Below, piece after piece: positions 1 through 6,961 of a stretch of DNA of 6,961 nt. The translations under genes and the position numbers were made by a program. How positions within the stretch are numbered: position 1 is the first letter of the stretch; each line of letters opens with the position of its first letter. Under the pieces are notes generated by a model. That model saw only the letters and a program-made list of their open reading frames with translations. It was not told where the DNA came from and searched no databases. Source of the stretch: a virus (Duplodnaviria; Heunggongvirae; Uroviricota; Caudoviricetes); the IMG/VR virus record IMGVR_UViG_2531839579_000008; one strand, given 5' to 3'.

Positions 1-226
1 TAATTGTATTATCAATAAAATAAAAGCTTGGGCGAGCGCATATAAAGTATATATGGCATTTTGAAAGTTGTTTTTCTTGTTCTAAATTAATTTTTGCATC
101 AGACGTTAGTTGCTGAGCAGTAAGCATCGCTGTAAAACTATTTAAGTATCCAAAAGCAAATTCGTGTATGAATTTTCTTTTCACTCGAAATATCCTCACT
201 AGAAATGAATAATATTGGTTTTTCAT
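1..226 (-). CDS. Hypothetical protein, N-terminal 75 codons only (gene runs off the left edge); candidate accessory/moron gene
   Basis: Reverse-strand frame is open for 75 codons from ATG (complement of 224-226) to position 2, with an in-frame stop (complement of 236-238) just upstream, so this ATG is the first possible start. An uninterrupted frame this long is unusual in DNA of about 30% GC (my count: 26% in 1-100, 35% in 101-200). Translation begins MKNQYYSFLVRIFRVKRKFIHEFAFGYLNSFTAMLTAQQLTSDAKINLEQEKQLSKCH; I recognise no family. No convincing Shine-Dalgarno. Missing from the supplied ORF track probably because it is edge-truncated. Confidence 0.45.
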   Translation of the reverse strand, partial: MKNQYYSFLVRIFRVKRKFIHEFAFGYLNSFTAMLTAQQLTSDAKINLEQEKQLSKCHIYFICARPSFYFIDNTI

Positions 227-555
227 GATAATACTCTATTGATCCTAGACTTACCATTTAAAAAACGAACTGACATGCTCCCGTTGATTAATAAGCTGTA
301 AGGTTAGCAATTCTTTTGGCGTTGAGAACAACTGCGAACTTCCGTTCCTTGCTCAAAGCAGACTGTTAGATTTGATAGCGTTTGGGCTATGTAAGTAGCC
401 AGTTGGAGAATGAGTGAGTGCAAATCAGGACTGGCGGGCGAATTGCCTGCATTTTCTTTATCTGTTGTTTCATCCACTGACCAGCCAGGTCAAATAGCGT
501 CTTATGCTCTGCACAACAGAAAATAGTTGCACCCATTAACCACGGAGTTAAACGG
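227..555. promoter_or_regulatory. Divergent intergenic region; expected to hold the promoter of the reverse-strand ORF and the late promoter of the FI-FII-E-T-U-D operon
   Basis: 329 bp with no ORF of any size worth calling, lying between two divergently oriented genes, and a composition shift from AT-rich (left) to GC-rich (right). Shine-Dalgarno GGAG at 545-548, 7 nt before the FI ATG. I scanned 420-555 for the Ogr-type TGT-N12-ACA dyad of P2 late promoters and found no exact match, so no promoter position is called. Confidence 0.3.
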
Positions 556-1741
556 ATGAGTGACTATCATCATGGCGTGCAGGTGCTGGAGATTAACGAC
601 GGCACCCGCGTCATTTCCACCGTATCCACTGCCATTGTCGGCATGGTCTGCACGGCCAGCGATGCGGATGCGGAAACCTTCCCCCTCAATAAACCGGTGC
701 TGATTACCAATGTGCAAAGCGCAATTGCAAAGGCCGGTAAAAAAGGCACGCTGGCGGCATCGTTGCAGGCCATCGCTGACCAGTCAAAACCGGTCACCGT
801 TGTCGTGCGCGTGGAAGACGGCACCGGTGATGACGAGGAAACGAAACTCGCGCAGACCGTTTCCAATATCATCGGCACCACCGACGAAAACGGTCAGTAC
901 ACCGGACTAAAAGCCCTGCTGGCGGTGGAGTCGGTAACCGGTGTTAAACCGCGTATTCTCGGTGTGCCGGGACTGGACACCAAAGAGGTGGCTGTTGCAC
1001 TGGCATCCGTCTGTCAGAAGCTGCGCGCTTTCGGATATATCAGCGCATGGGGCTGTAAGACCATTTCCGAGGTGAAAGCCTACCGCCAGAATTTCAGCCA
1101 GCGTGAGCTGATGGTCATCTGGCCGGATTTCCTCGCATGGGATACGGTCACCAGTACCACCGCCACCGCGTATGCCACCGCCCGTGCGCTGGGTCTGCGC
1201 GCTAAAATCGACCAGGAGCAGGGCTGGCATAAAACGCTGTCCAACGTCGGGGTAAACGGTGTTACCGGCATCAGCGCATCTGTATTCTGGGATTTGCAGG
1301 AGTCGGCACCGATGCTGACCTGCTTAACGAGTCAGGCGTCACTACGCTGATTCGCCGCGACGGTTTCCGTTCTGGGGTAACCGTACCTGCTCTGATGACC
1401 CGCTGTTCCTCTTTGAAAACTAACCCGCACCGCGCAGGTGTGGCCGACACGATGGCTGAGGCGCACATGTGGGCGGTGGACAAGCCCATCACCGCAACGC
1501 TGATTCGCGACATCGTTGACGGCATCAATGCCAAATTCGTGAGCTGAAAACAAACGGCTATATCGTGGATGCGACCTGCTGGTTCAGCGAAGAATCCAAC
1601 GATGCGGAAACCCTCAAGGCCGGAAAACTGTATATCGACTACGACTATACACCGGTGCCTCCTCTTGAAAACCTGACCCTGCGCCAGCGTATTACCGATA
1701 AATACCTGGCAAATCTGGTCACTTCGGTTAACAGCAATTAA
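556..1741 (+). pseudogene. FI: Tail sheath protein gpFI (P2 family), reading frame interrupted; intact only for 556..1350 (264 aa)
   Basis: N-terminus MSDYHHGVQVLEINDGTRVISTVSTAIVGMVC matches P2 gpFI as I recall it. The ORF stops at 1348-1350, but coding continues in shifted frames: frame 0 (1308-1370) TDADLLNESGVTTLIRRDGFR, frame 2 (1373-1420) WGNRTCSDDPLFLFEN, frame 1 (1423-1440) TRTAQV, frame 0 (1443-1538) ADTMAEAHMWAVDKPITATLIRDIVDGINAKF, frame 2 (1541-1738) ELKTNGYIVDATCWFSEESNDAETLKAGKLYIDYDYTPVPPLENLTLRQRITDKYLANLVTSVNSN, with stop TAA at 1739-1741 overlapping the FII Shine-Dalgarno. Each hop is a -1 step, so five single-base losses near 1305, 1371, 1421, 1440 and 1539. Corrected length would be about 396 aa, the typical sheath size. 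Confidence 0.85.
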
Positions 1742-1753
1742 GGAGCCTGACCG

Positions 1754-2272
1754 ATGGCAATGCCGCGCAAACTCAAGTTAATGAACGTCTTTCTGAACGG
1801 CTACAGCTATCAGGGCGTTGCAAAGTCCGTCACGCTGCCAAAACTGACCCGTAAGCTTGAAAACTATCGCGGTGCGGGGATGAACGGCAGCGCACCGGTA
1901 GACCTCGGCCTTGATGACGATGCGCTGTCAATGGAGTGGTCGCTCGGTGGCTTCCCGGATTCGGTTATCTGGGAGCTTTACGCCGCAACCGGCGTGGATG
2001 CCGTCCCGATTCGTTTTGCAGGCTCTTACCAGCGCGACGATACCGGCGAAACGGTGGCCGTTGAGGTGGTCATGCGTGGACGTCAGAAAGAAATCGACAC
2101 CGGCGAGGGTAAACAGGGAGAAGACACCGAGTCGAAAATCTCCGTGGTCTGCACCTATTTCCGGCTGACGATGGACGGTAAGGAGCTGGTCGAAATCGAC
2201 ACCATCAACATGATTGAGAAGGTGAACGGCGTCGACCGGCTGGAGCAACACCGCCGCAATATCGGCCTGTGA
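1754..2272 (+). CDS. FII: Tail tube protein gpFII (P2 family)
   Basis: Intact 172-aa ORF beginning MAMPRKLKLMNVFLNGYSYQGVAKSVTLPKL, matching P2 gpFII in sequence and length as recalled. Strong Shine-Dalgarno AAGGAG at 1740-1745. Immediately follows the sheath gene as in P2. Confidence 0.9.
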   Translation: MAMPRKLKLMNVFLNGYSYQGVAKSVTLPKLTRKLENYRGAGMNGSAPVDLGLDDDALSMEWSLGGFPDSVIWELYAATGVDAVPIRFAGSYQRDDTGETVAVEVVMRGRQKEIDTGEGKQGEDTESKISVVCTYFRLTMDGKELVEIDTINMIEKVNGVDRLEQHRRNIGL

Positions 2273-2328: not shown

Positions 2329-2604
2329 ATGAACAAAGAAAATGTGATTACCCTGGACAATCCGGTCAAACGTGGTGAGCAGGTTATCGAACAGGTCACG
2401 CTGATGAAACCCAGTGCCGGGACGCTGCGCGGTGTCAGTCTGGCAGCGGTCGCAAACTCCGAAGTCGATGCACTGATTAAGGTGTTGCCGCGCATGACGG
2501 CACCGATGCTGACCGAGCAGGAAGTCGCCGCACTGGAACTGCCTGACCTTGTGGCGCTGGCCGGTAAGGTGGTCGGTTTTTTGTCGCCGAACTCGGTGCA
2601 GTGA
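2329..2604 (+). CDS. E: Tail assembly chaperone gpE (P2 family)
   Basis: Intact 91-aa ORF MNKENVITLDNPVKRGEQVIEQVTLMKPSAGTLRGVSLAAVANSEVDALIKVLPRMTAPMLTEQEVAALELPDLVALAGKVVGFLSPNSVQ, matching P2 gpE in sequence and length as recalled. Confidence 0.9.
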   Translation: MNKENVITLDNPVKRGEQVIEQVTLMKPSAGTLRGVSLAAVANSEVDALIKVLPRMTAPMLTEQEVAALELPDLVALAGKVVGFLSPNSVQ

Positions 2605-2756
2605 CGTTCCCGAAAAATCTGTCGGTCGATGACCTGATGGCGGATGTGGCAGTGATATTTCACTGGCCGCCATCAGAACTGTATCCCATGAGCCTGACCG
2701 AACTCATCACATGGCGCGAAAAGGCGCTCCGGCGAAGCGGAAACACGAATGAGTAA
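2329..2756 (+). CDS. E': gpE+E' fusion made by programmed -1 ribosomal frameshift near the 3' end of E
   Basis: Slippery run TTTTTTG at 2577-2583 inside the last codons of E. The -1 frame from 2583 is open to TAA at 2754-2756 and reads VAELGAVTFPKNLSVDDLMADVAVIFHWPPSELYPMSLTELITWREKALRRSGNTNE. Total about 142 aa, the size I recall for P2 E+E'. The E' stop overlaps the T start at 2749. Confidence 0.8.
2577..2583 (+). other. Programmed -1 frameshift slippery site (T6G) for E/E'
   Basis: TTTTTTG heptamer, 20 nt before the E stop codon, with an open -1 frame downstream. This is the arrangement of the conserved tail-chaperone frameshift in P2 (gpE/E') and lambda (gpG/GT). Confidence 0.75.
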
Positions 2757-5174
2757 CAATGTAAAATTACAGGTATTGCTCAGGGCTGTTGACCAGGCAT
2801 CCCGCCCGTTTAAATCCATCCGCACAGCGAGCAAATCGCTGTCGGGGGATATCCGGGAAACACAAAAATCACTGCGCGAGCTGAACGGTCACGCATCCCG
2901 TATTGAGGGATTCGCAAGACCAGTGCACAGCTCGCCGTGACTGGTCATGCACTTGAAAAGGCACGGCAGGAGGCCGAAGCCCTTGCCACACAGTTTAAAA
3001 ACACCGAACGTCCGACACGTGCTCAGGCGAAAGTGCTGGAATCGCAAGCGGCGGCGGAGGACTTACAGGCGAAATATAACCGCCTGACGGATTCCGTTAA
3101 ACGCCAGCAGCGGGAACTGGCCGTTGTGGGAATTAATACCCGCAATCTTGCACATGATGAGCAGGGACTGAAAAACCGTATCAGTGAAACCACCGCCCAG
3201 CTTAACCGGCAGCGTGACGCGCTGGCGCGTGTCAGTGCGCAACAGGCAAAACTTAACGCAGTCAAACAGCGTTATCAGGCCGGAAAGGAACTGGCCGGAA
3301 ATATGGCCTCAGTGGGCGCTGCCGGTGTGGGGATTGCTGCTGCGGGAACGATGGCCGGAGTTAAGTTGCTGATGCCCGGTTATGAGTTTGCGCAGAAAAA
3401 CTCAGAATTGCAGGCTGTGCTCGGTGTGGCAAAAGACTCCGCCGAAATGGCCGCGCTCCGCAAGCAGGCGCGCCAGCTCGGCGACAATACCGCAGCCTCG
3501 GCAGATGATGCAGCCGGTGCGCAGATTATTATTGCGAAAGCCGGTGGGGATGTTGATGCCATTCAGGCGGCAACGCCGGTCACGTTGAATATGGCGCTGG
3601 CGAACCGCCGCACGATGGAAGAAAACGCCGCCCTGCTGATGGGGATGAAATCCGCCTTTCAGCTTTCAAACGATAAGGTCGCTCATATCGGGGATGTTCT
3701 CTCCATGACGATGAACAAAACCGCCGCCGATTTTGACGGTATGAGCGATGCGCTGACCTATGCCGCACCTGTGGCAAAAAATGCCGGTGTCAGCATTGAA
3801 GAAACCGCCGCAATGGTCGGGGCGCTGCATGATGCAAAAATCACAGGCTCAATGGCGGGGACGGGAAGCCGTGCCGTGTTAAGCCGCCTGCAGGCACCGA
3901 CGGGAAAAGCATGGGATGCACTCAAAGAGCTTGGAGTGAAAACCTCAGACAGCAAGGGAAACACCCGGCCAATATTTACCATTCTGAAAGAAATGCAGGC
4001 CAGTTTTGAGAAAAACCGGCTCGGTACTGCCCAGCAGGCTGAATACATGAAAACCATTTTCGGGGAGGAGGCCAGCTCAGCCGCCGCTGTGCTGATGACT
4101 GCCGCCTCAACCGGAAAGCTGGACAAACTGACCGCTGCGTTTAAAGCCTCAGACGGGAAGACCGCAGAGCTGGTAAATATCATGCAGGACAACCTCGGCG
4201 GTGACTTTAAGGAGTTTCAGTCCGCTTATGAGGCGGTGGGGACGACCTGTTTGACCAGCAGGAAGGCGCACTGCGTAATCTCACGCAGACGGCCACAAAG
4301 TATGTGTTAAAACTCGACGGCTGGATCCAGAAAAACAAATCACTGGCGTCAACCATCGGCTCATTGTCGGTGGGCCTGGCCTATTGGTCATCGGTGCCAT
4401 TGGCTGTAGCCTGGCCGGTTATCACGGCATCAATGCCATCATCGCGGCAGCAGGCGCAATGGGGGCATCTTCACGACGGTTGGCAGTGCTGTTATGACGC
4501 CATCGGGGCGATTAGCTGGCCGGTTGTGGCCGTGGTGGCCGCCATTGTCGCCGGGGCGTTGCTTATCCGTAAATACTGGGAGCCTGTCAGCGCATTCTTT
4601 GGCGGTGTGGTGGAAGGGCTGAAAGCGGCATTTGCGCCGGTGGGGGAACTGTTCACGCCACTTAAACCGGTGTTTGACTGGCTGGGCGAAAAGTTACAGG
4701 CCGCGTGGCAGTGGTTTAAAAACCTGATTGCCCCGGTCAAAGCCACCCAGGACACCCTGAACCGTTGCCGTGACACGGGCGTCATGTTCGGGCAGGCACT
4801 GGCTGACGCGCTGATGCTGCCGCTTAATGCGTTCAACAAACTGCGCGGCGGTATTGACTGGGTACTGGAAAAACTCGGCGTCATCAACAAAGAGTCAGGC
4901 ACGCTTGACCAGACCGCCGCCAGAACTCATGCCGCCACGTATGGCACCGGTGGTTATATTCCGGCGACCAGCTCTTATGCAGGTTATCAGGCTTATCAGC
5001 CGGTCACGGCACCGGCTGGCCGCTCTTATGTAGACCAGAGTAAAAACGAATATCACATCACCTGACGGGGGTACTCGCCGGGGAACAGCTCGACCGCCAG
5101 TTACAGGATGCCTCGAAAAATACGAGCGGGATAAACGTGCGCGCGCCCGTGCCAGCATGATGCATGACGGTTAA
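2749..5174 (+). pseudogene. T: Tail tape measure protein gpT (P2 family), reading frame interrupted at several points
   Basis: N-terminus MSNNVKLQVLLRAVDQASRPFKSIRTASKSL matches P2 gpT as recalled. The track splits the gene into 2749..2940 (frame 1), 2937..4310 (frame 0) and 4304..5065 (frame 2). Frame hops: near 2913 (IEGF then RKTSAQLAVTGHAL in the next frame); near 4244 (EAVGT then LFDQQEGALRNLTQTATKYVLKLDGW); three hops in 4362-4499 within a hydrophobic segment; near 5062 and 5112, after which frame 0 reads LEKYERDKRARARASMMHDG to TAA at 5172-5174, which overlaps the U Shine-Dalgarno AAGGAGG (5173-5179). Corrected length about 810 aa, against about 815 aa recalled for P2 gpT. Confidence 0.85.
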
Positions 5175-5188
5175 GGAGGTGACGAAAA

Positions 5189-5662
5189 ATGATGCTCGCG
5201 TTAGGTATGTTTGTTTTTATGCGCCAGACGCTGCCACACCAGACCATGCAGCGTGAATCAGATTATCGCTGGCCGTCAAATTCCCGTATCGGTAAACGGG
5301 AGCTTTCAGTTTCTCGGTGTGGGAGGAAAACATCACGCTTGCCGGTGTGCTTTATCCCGACTGACCGGCGGAAGCTGACGATGACCACGCTCAGGCTGAT
5401 GGCAGAGGAAGGCCGGGCGTGGCCGTTGCTGGATGGCACCGGCATGATTTACGGCATGTATGTCATCAGCAGGGTGAGTGAAGCAGGGAGTATTTTCTTT
5501 GCAGACGGCACACCCCGAAAAATTGATTTTACGCTGTCGCTTACCCGCGTTGATGAATCACTGGCCGCGCTTTATGGCGATATCGGTAAACAGGCGGAAT
5601 CGCTCATCGGTAAGGCTGGCAGTATGGCGACTAAATTCACGGGTATGACGGGGGCGGGATAA
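5189..5662 (+). CDS. U: Tail protein gpU (P2 family); full-length frame but with an internal 25-aa stretch that appears to be read out of frame
   Basis: 157-aa ORF with Shine-Dalgarno AAGGAGG at 5173-5179. The N-terminus MMLALGMFVFMRQTLPHQTMQRESDYRWPSNSRIGKR and the C-terminus KLTMTTLRLMAEEGRAWPLLDGTGMIYGMYVISRVSEAGSIFFADGTPRKIDFTLSLTRVDESLAALYGDIGKQAESLIGKAGSMATKFTGMTGAG match P2 gpU as recalled. The middle segment ELSVSRCGRKTSRLPVCFIPTDRR (5300-5371) is Arg/Cys-rich, while the other two frames over the same bases read FQFLGVG, EENITLAGVLYP and LTGG. Confidence 0.85.
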   Translation: MMLALGMFVFMRQTLPHQTMQRESDYRWPSNSRIGKRELSVSRCGRKTSRLPVCFIPTDRRKLTMTTLRLMAEEGRAWPLLDGTGMIYGMYVISRVSEAGSIFFADGTPRKIDFTLSLTRVDESLAALYGDIGKQAESLIGKAGSMATKFTGMTGAG

Positions 5663-6825
5663 TGCTGGATGCGCTGACATTTGATGCAGGCAGTACGCTG
5701 ACGCCGGATTACATGCTGATGCTCGACAGCAGGGATATTACCGGCAATATCAGCGACCGTCTGATGAGCATGACCCTGACGGATAACCGGGGCTTTGAGG
5801 CTGACCAGCTTGATATTGAACTGAACGATGCCGACGGGCAGGTCGGGCTACCGATTCGTGGCGCTGTCCTGACGGTGTATATCGGCTGGAAAGGTTTTGC
5901 CCTGGTATGCAAAGGGAAATTTACCGTTGATGAGGTTGAACACCGGGGCGCGCCGGATGTGGTTACCATCCGCGCCCGGAGTGCAGATTTCCGCGGGACG
6001 CTTAATTCCCGCCGGGAAGGCTCCTGGCATGACACCACGCTCGGTGCGATTGTTGAGGCGATAGCCTCCCGTAACAAGCTGGAGGCCAGTGTCGCTCCGT
6101 CACTGGCCGGAATTAAAATCCCGCACATCGACCAGTCGCAGGAGTCTGATGCGAAATTCCTGATCCGTCTTGCTGAACGCAACGGCGGTGAGGTGTCGGT
6201 AAAAATGGGAAAACTGTTGTTTCTTAAGGCGGGGCAGGGGGTGACGGCCAGCGGTAAAAAAATCCCGCAGATTACCATCACCCGCAGCGACGGCGACCGT
6301 CATCATTTTGCGATTGCTGACCGTGGAGCCTACACCGGTGTAACGGCAAAATGGCTACACACCAAAGACCCGAAGCCTCAAAAGCAGAAGGTAAAACTGA
6401 AACGTAAAAAGAAAGAGAAACACCTGCGCGCACTGGAGCACCCGAAAGCGAAACCGGTCAGGCAGAAGAAAGCGCCTAAAGTACCGGAAGCGCGTGAAGG
6501 TGAATACATGGCCGGTGAGGCTGACAACGTTTTTGCCCTGACCACGGTATATGCCACGAAAGCACAGGCCATGCGTGCCGCTCAGGCGAAGTGGGATAAG
6601 CTGCAACGGGGTGTAGCGGAGTTCTCCATCAGCCTGGCTACTGGTCGGGCAGATATTTACACGGAAACACCGGTTAAAGTGTCAGGCTTTAAGCGCGTCA
6701 TAGACGAGCAGGACTGGACAATCACTAAGGTGACACATTTTCTGAATAACAGCGGCTTCACGACGTCCCTGGAGCTTGAGGTCAGGCTTTCTGATGTGAA
6801 GTACGAAACAGAAGATGATGAGTGA
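5662..6825 (+). CDS. D: Tail protein gpD (phage late control gene D family, P2 family)
   Basis: Intact 387-aa ORF MLDALTFDAGSTLTPDYMLMLDSRDITGNISDRLMSMTLTDNRGFEADQLDIELNDADGQ, matching P2 gpD in sequence and length as recalled. Its start overlaps the U stop (TAATG at 5660-5664). Contains the lysine-rich basic stretch typical of gpD. Confidence 0.9.
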   Translation: MLDALTFDAGSTLTPDYMLMLDSRDITGNISDRLMSMTLTDNRGFEADQLDIELNDADGQVGLPIRGAVLTVYIGWKGFALVCKGKFTVDEVEHRGAPDVVTIRARSADFRGTLNSRREGSWHDTTLGAIVEAIASRNKLEASVAPSLAGIKIPHIDQSQESDAKFLIRLAERNGGEVSVKMGKLLFLKAGQGVTASGKKIPQITITRSDGDRHHFAIADRGAYTGVTAKWLHTKDPKPQKQKVKLKRKKKEKHLRALEHPKAKPVRQKKAPKVPEAREGEYMAGEADNVFALTTVYATKAQAMRAAQAKWDKLQRGVAEFSISLATGRADIYTETPVKVSGFKRVIDEQDWTITKVTHFLNNSGFTTSLELEVRLSDVKYETEDDE

Positions 6826-6906: not shown

Positions 6907-6961
6907 ATGTTTCATTGTCCTTTATGCCAGCATGCCGCACATGCGCGTACAAGTCGCTATA
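6907..6961 (+). CDS. ogr: Ogr zinc-finger late-gene transcriptional activator, 5' end only (runs off the right edge)
   Basis: Translation from ATG 6907 reads MFHCPLCQHAAHARTSRY, which is the N-terminus of P2 Ogr as I recall it and includes the CxxC zinc-binding motif. It sits directly after D as in P2. An in-frame ATG at 6871 would add 12 residues (MAPSTKPEEVLA) but has a poorer ribosome-binding site. Confidence 0.85.
   Translation, partial: MFHCPLCQHAAHARTSRY

Follow-up and report, generated by a model that had tools for sequence, protein, structure and literature searches.

Single-base losses confined to allele differences in the tape measure gene of a P2-like prophage on a draft Escherichia coli contig

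Results

The stretch of DNA analysed here (the window, 6,961 nt) is identical to the whole of NCBI contig AQBU01000162.1, part of a draft assembly deposited in 2013 (GCA_000358575.2), and the protein records of this contig give the strain as Escherichia coli p0305293.11. The window contains the late tail operon FI-FII-E-T-U-D of a P2-like prophage, with every gene on the + strand, and shares 96-98% identity with phage P2 and with prophages in some 1,600 complete E. coli genomes (Table 1). Unique cargo lies 5′ of FI, at 1-350. The tape measure gene T lies directly 3′ of the E/E+E′ pair and 5′ of U and D, which is the order found in P2. In operons of the P2 type the E/E+E′ pair is expressed by a real programmed −1 frameshift, and its slippery run, TTTTTTG, is present at 2577-2583 of the window. 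Base-level alignments were made to two references, P2 (L001) and the closest prophage, L002 (E. coli 120899).

Table 1. Genes, clusters of missing bases and the hydrophobic region of gpT in the window, with the proteins obtained when the missing bases are restored. Identity is to the L002 protein.
Feature	Position	Strand	Remark	Repaired protein (aa)	Identity	Bases restored
FI, tail sheath	556-1741	+	split into three ORFs by 5 dropped bases	396	394/396	5
FI losses, cluster c1	1302..1537	+	5 bases; strictly reproduced by L002 + L035			
FII	1754-2272	+		172	172/172	0
E	2329-2604	+		91	91/91	0
E′ overlap	ends 2756	+				
T, tape measure, true extent	2749-5174	+	815 aa once 22 bases are restored	815	810/815 (WP_000069946.1)	22
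5′ T losses, cluster c2	2910..3050	+	4 bases; reproduced by L002 + L006			
T loss, cluster c3	4243..4244	+	1 base; frame shift leading to a stop at 4310			
DNA for hydrophobic, transmembrane-like region of gpT (about aa 538-612)	4355..4567	+	from hydropathy			
Interval losses	4359..4498	+	12 single bases			
3′ T losses, cluster c5	5059..5111	+	5 bases, leading to a stop at 5065			
U	5189-5662	+	157 aa as deposited, not 159; garbled stretch	159	159/159	6
U losses, cluster c6	5301..5371	+	6 bases, net in frame; strictly reproduced by L002 + L006/L061/L066			
D	5662-6825	+		387	383/387	0
ogr, first 55 nt	6907-6961	+				

As deposited, T falls into four pieces: ORFs 2749-2940, 2937-4310 and 4304-5065, and a C-terminal remnant. 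A single frame of about 815 codons is absent from the deposited sequence and appears only after a 22-base repair, an absence that is attributed here to the assembly and not to the gene. An earlier note, made from the letters of the window, had described positions 4355-4505 as a hydrophobic segment of T readable only as a patchwork of three frames. The annotated ORF of that note, 4304-5065, is just one of the four T fragments, and T is also broken outside the noted interval, near 2910, at 4243 and at 5059-5111. The three translations quoted in that note proved exact on re-translation: ORF 4304-5065 reads ...ASMPSSRQQAQWGHLHDGWQCCYDAIGAISWPVV... in its own frame, the frame from 4363 gives IVGGPGLLVIGAIGCSLAGYHGINAIIAAAGAMG(A), and the frame from 4467 gives IFTTVGSAVMT, after which the first frame resumes with IGAISWPVVAVVAAIVAGALLIRKYWEP. 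Since the interval holds no stop codon in the called frame, the ORF list is blind to the disruption, as had been stated.

The called frame had further been judged implausible for a tape measure protein, and hydropathy agrees. Across the stretch KNKSLAST...IRKYWEP, the deposited frame has a mean Kyte-Doolittle hydropathy of 0.44 with 15 charged or polar residues, compared to 1.46 with 7 such residues in intact homologues, a contrast far beyond chance. Peptides of the WGHLHD type, which the called frame contains, occur in homologues only in a frame other than that of T. As markers in any frame, WGHLHD and SRQQAQW were tried and rejected, because they match nearly every homologue off the T frame; in the called ORF frame they are found in the window alone.

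Each homologue has 2,523 nt in the T region where the window has 2,501. Relative to L001 and L002, the window lacks 33 single bases in all and has none inserted in its coding part, and these losses form six clusters, with 5 bases missing from FI, 22 from T (4 + 1 + 12 + 5) and 6 from U. Near the 5′ end of T, the loss near 2910 shifts the frame into the stop at 2940, and those at 3042, 3045 and 3050 are net in frame. Indels are likewise present within 4355-4505 on alignment to P2 T. Here bases are missing after 4359/60, 4373, 4375, 4380, 4381/2, 4386/7 (two adjacent bases), 4403, 4404/5, 4424/5, 4466/7 and 4497/8. The frame slips at 4360 and again at 4466/7 and 4497/8, which returns it to the starting frame; the prediction that the net effect of the losses restores the frame is thus borne out by the alignment. 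The three losses that had been proposed (at about 4362, 4466 and 4499) each lie 1-3 nt from a real one (4359/60, 4466/7 and 4497/8, respectively), but the actual number is 12. The remaining nine, at 4373-4425, sum to three codons and therefore cause no visible frame change, so that the middle frame had looked continuous. The patchwork that had been read as a clean segment is hydrophobic, yet the first ~22 residues of its middle frame (IVGGPGLLVIGAIGCSLAGYHG) are scrambled and lack three residues; the correct reading at this place is IVGGALALIG(I/V)IGAIGLVAWPVITG.

Re-insertion of the 33 bases gives full-length genes with no internal stop (Table 1). The restored T protein exceeds the curated cut-offs of two family models, with 155.3 bits for PF10145 of Pfam (against 33.2) and 352.7 bits for TIGR01760 of NCBIfam (against 28.8). 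Among the deposited fragments, the 457-aa T fragment also carries PF10145, and the 253-aa ORF had no match in the profile search. The hydrophobic block of restored T reads NKSLASTIGLIVGGALALIGIIGAIGLVAWPVITGINAIIAAAGAMGAVFTTVGSAVMTAIGAISWPVVAVVAAIVAGALLIRKYW. In a hydropathy scan with a 19-aa window and a threshold of ≥1.6, intact alleles rise above the threshold at centres 541-607, compared to residues 71-83 only, the last segment, in the deposited ORF; as deposited, only the last third of the DNA for this region (from 4500) is in the right frame. The suspicion that a hydrophobic, transmembrane-like tape measure segment was hidden in the interval is therefore supported by the hydropathy of both the intact homologues and restored T.

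A programmed origin for the arrangement, in which ribosomes would shift frame three times through the hydrophobic segment, has a precedent of a kind in the E/E+E′ frameshift of the same operon. This reading is refuted by the lack of conservation among homologues: the arrangement occurs on one contig only, and a single frame runs through the segment in 80 of 80 IMG/VR loci and in every listed E. coli or phage homologue. Moreover, the three-frame translation is itself wrong for 22 residues, with nine more bases missing than it allows for. The chance that recoding accounts for the segment is regarded as practically nil.

Many of the missing bases fell at positions where P2 and L002 differ, and a test of allele differences was therefore run. 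The 80 IMG/VR loci with a full-length T were fetched and placed on L002 coordinates, yielding 53 haplotypes of the interval. Only one pairing among these haplotypes reproduces the deposited interval once the differing columns are deleted, that of allele A (the type of L002, L005, L010 and L032) with allele B (the type of L003, L006, L020 and L028). The two alleles are 12 columns apart, and the interval 4355-4505 is allele A minus exactly those 12 columns. When 12 bases were instead deleted from allele A at random, none of 300 versions could be reproduced by any allele pair, and the probability of an exact coincidence with the allele-difference pattern is ~6e-18. The same holds along the contig, as all six clusters are reproduced by allele A together with a second natural allele, and in four of the six all differing columns are gone and no other column is removed. 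Every one of the 33 losses lies on a column that is variable in a panel of 74 intact homologues, including the isolated loss at 4243/4244 (minor allele count 27/74), whereas in 20,000 random draws the number on polymorphic columns averaged 9.4 and never exceeded 19.

Several sequencing platforms err most often by deleting single bases, and random indels of the homopolymer type that passed into the consensus would be one source of missing bases. The losses are not distributed as such errors would be: no homopolymer of more than 3 bases contains one, and 20 of the 33 are in runs of 1. Neither their complete restriction to polymorphic columns nor the exact allele-difference pattern is expected of random errors, and the losses, when tested, were not independent of allele differences. 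In addition, the project paper that fits the strain series describes Illumina sequencing at >200x (PMC4462620). We consider random sequencing error extremely unlikely.

The test was carried out cluster by cluster because P2-like prophages are too mosaic for a pair to be sought over the whole contig. Among pairs of L002 with the 80 IMG/VR loci and L086, a prophage that has the same left flank as the window and was included in the whole-contig search, no single natural allele pair accounts for the whole 6.6 kb; the best pairs explain 25-27 of the 33 losses and 49-61 of 99 substitutions. Judged from these comparisons, the two putative parental copies are known only locally.

As deposited, T, FI and U are all disrupted, and decayed P2-like remnants are known in E. 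coli, for example in ETEC4088. The window might accordingly hold a genuine pseudogene, in a decaying prophage that has accumulated single-base deletions in its tail genes. The composition of the lesions speaks against decay, with 33 deletions of 1 nt, no insertions and every deletion on an allele-variable column. Compared with the nearest allele, the stretch 4300-4560 (261 nt) has 12 gaps yet no substitutions (261/273 = 95.6%, the best match among 1,790 homologous places in complete E. coli genomes), and after restoration of the bases no nonsense mutation is left. The true remnant in ETEC4088 consists of one large deletion joining FI to D. Heritable lesions would also be expected in relatives, and the losses recur at none of these 1,790 places. 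Finally, the sister colony p0305293.7, described below, has an intact T and 20 different losses. A pseudogene is considered very unlikely.

The 253-aa product containing WGHLHDGWQCCYD is recorded on the source contig only. The garbled 157-aa U is found on one other contig, AQCC01000104.1 (L003), from E. coli p0305293.7. On that contig T is intact (815 aa) and carries the allele B base at 12 of 12 columns. It has 26 single-base losses of its own, all 26 on polymorphic columns: the window is intact at 20 of these sites (in FI, FII, E and D) and shares the other 6, in U. Losses confined to polymorphic columns were also found on further draft contigs, with 9 on L031, 2 on L028 and 3 on L042. The IMG genome numbers of L031 and L028 adjoin that of L003, and each of these two contigs has part of the same set of losses. 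The window, L003, L028 and L031, compared at 196 variable columns, never display more than two bases per column and alternate blockwise between two common states. The six U losses and three of the FI losses recur across several sister assemblies; this recurrence also fits a real inherited change, though nine of these nine losses are on polymorphic columns.

The NCBI taxonomy lists 15 strains in the series, p0305293.1 to p0305293.15. P0305293.1 is an enterotoxigenic E. coli (ETEC) isolate from Bangladesh, collected in 2011 and sequenced by the Maryland genome centre (PMC4309559). In the project paper matching the series, several colonies were taken from each patient, and Illumina HiSeq2000 reads were assembled with the Celera Assembler (PMC4462620). 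It reports clonal ETEC populations in 10 of 12 patients and mixed populations in 2 of 12, P0299917 and P0299438; P0305293 is not named in its main text. From this study design, we infer that P0305293 was among the clonal patients and that its colonies are clonal.

The mixed populations in two patients give some weight to the idea that a mixed template, from two strains or from contaminating DNA, supplied the two alleles, with the same artefact as the result. Against this, single colonies were sequenced (PMC4462620), and the mixed patients named do not include P0305293. A like merge is also seen in at least two colonies of the series and in two drafts with neighbouring IMG numbers, and the closest complete ETEC genomes already contain 2-3 P2-like places per genome. 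When allele B was used to search the closest complete ETEC genome for a second P2-like copy, the same place was returned. A mixed template is thought rather improbable.

Discussion

The results point to the scrambled stretch of T as a merged-repeat consensus error of the draft assembly and not a property of the organism, a reading to which we assign a probability of about 0.95. The read set would have held two P2-like tail operons, some 98-99% identical (about 1.5% apart), which the assembler would have fused into one contig. Where the copies agreed, the consensus would be correct; where they differed, one allele would have been taken or, in six stretches, no base at all. At 4359-4498 the alleles differ at 12 columns, and every one of these would have been dropped. 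One step by which an assembler might do this is to lay out a mismatch as two half-gapped columns, each of which would then be called as a gap. The proposed fusion predicts doubled read depth and a roughly even mixture of two bases at each site, the predicted pairs at 4359-4498 being C/A, C/T, G/A, G/A, T/G, CA/GT, T/C, T/C, T/C, G/A and C/G.

The same artefact might have arisen by another route, if ambiguity letters (Y, R and so on) had been written at the variable columns and stripped before deposition. Such stripping would leave one missing base per variable column, as observed. The NCBI contig already has the 6,961 nt of the window, so that any stripping must have preceded submission, and this route is considered unlikely.

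As for the source of the two copies, the 2-3 P2-like places in the closest complete ETEC genomes favour two co-resident P2-like prophages in one genome as the most likely origin of the two alleles. With two such prophages in a cell, the losses could in principle have arisen in vivo, through recombination between them, with heteroduplex formation and faulty repair that deleted one base at each mismatch; sister colonies would then differ by way of different conversion tracts. The probability of such an event is put as low as that of random sequencing error. Under a merge of copies in the assembly, the gpT gene or genes of the strain itself are almost certainly ordinary and intact, encoding 815 aa with the usual hydrophobic region.

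There is nothing new in the gene, which is that of P2 gpT. The three-frame patchwork is real in the deposited sequence, but it reflects an assembly error and not biology. The window is a clean example of how an error of this kind can imitate frameshift mutations and 'hidden' protein segments. Products invented in this way find a place in protein databases as though genuine: the garbled 157-aa GpU of this contig is entered in both RefSeq and UniRef. When pseudogenes, recoding or novel ORFs are being sought, a short draft contig from repeated prophage DNA deserves suspicion if its indels all lie on known variable sites.

The known counterpart of the gene is gpT of phage P2 (NP_046782.1; PF10145, TIGR01760). 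Over 2.5 kb the DNA of the window shows 96.8% identity to P2 T, and the two agree in gene order (FI-FII-E-E′-T-U-D), in protein length once the gene is restored (815 aa) and in the hydrophobic region at aa 538-612. It is the deposited sequence alone that differs from P2 T, with 22 bases fewer and four ORFs. Hydrophobic, putatively membrane-spanning regions are known from tape measure proteins. That of phage TP901-1 has two of them, each predicted to contain three membrane-spanning stretches (PMC5099701), and restored gpT resembles it, as judged by hydropathy, in a hydrophobic block of some 75 aa that includes two or three putative stretches. The arrangement as a whole is similar to the consensus errors that overlap-consensus assemblers make with collapsed copies, in which near-identical copies are likewise merged, errors are likewise confined to the sites at which they differ, and the outcome at a given site likewise varies between assemblies of sister colonies. 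The usual result of a merge is a mosaic of both alleles. In the window, unlike this usual outcome, whole runs of variable columns have been dropped, mimicking frameshift mutations.

Single-base losses in the sheath gene and in sister contigs

The tail sheath gene FI is read as three ORFs because it has lost five bases, of the same kind as those lost elsewhere in the contig. The losses at columns 1667, 1721 and 1740 (numbered on the closest prophage, that of E. coli 120899) are also present in L003, the corresponding contig of sister colony p0305293.7, and in the draft contig L031, while a further draft contig, L028, repeats two of them (1667 and 1740). The numbers of single-base losses in L003, L031, L028 and another draft contig, L042, are 26, 9, 2 and 3, respectively, and every one falls on a column that varies among intact homologues. 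Repeated prophage DNA throughout this assembly set is probably affected by the same problem. The IMG genome numbers of L003, L031 and L028 are adjacent.

Since six bases are missing from window 5189-5662, the GpU protein translated from this interval is both garbled and shortened, to 157 aa, two residues short. This form has been given entries in RefSeq (WP_001661088.1) and UniRef100 (UniRef100_UPI0002CA9777), for which the sole sources are two sister draft assemblies; a reference protein entry (GpU, WP_001661088.1) now stands for an artefact.

Coordinates of the recoding site, the interrupted sheath gene and the comparison loci.
Feature	Sequence	Coordinates	Description
P2 E/E+E' programmed -1 frameshift site, GGTTTTTTG	window	2575-2584	intact
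FI	window	556-1741	broken into ORFs 556-1350, 1395-1547 and 1565-1741
L003	AQCC01000104.1	3569-10186	region with the same error class as the window
L087	E. coli ETEC4088	7756-8371	truly degraded P2-like prophage, yegQ site

The E/E+E' site is a known and genuine recoding signal within the same operon and has no connection to the garbled stretch of tape measure gene T.

Contig boundaries and comparison with a decayed prophage

The first 350 nt of the contig precede the region common to other P2-like prophages, and its end lies within ogr, of which 55 nt are included (window 6907-6961). The contig lies almost wholly within the shared tail operon, and this near-complete confinement fits a repeat-bounded contig. 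Window 1-350 lies 5′ of FI, where P2 has the Z/fun cargo locus. This sequence is rare: of 5,426 complete E. coli genomes, just 6 match it at 100% identity, and in those six it forms the 5′ portion of a minus-strand hypothetical gene (WP_223675583.1).

The remnant in E. coli ETEC4088 provides a useful contrast: whereas the window carries scattered 1-nt losses, in ETEC4088 one large deletion fuses the 5′ portion of FI with the 3′ end of D, and a second deletion takes out part of the baseplate genes.
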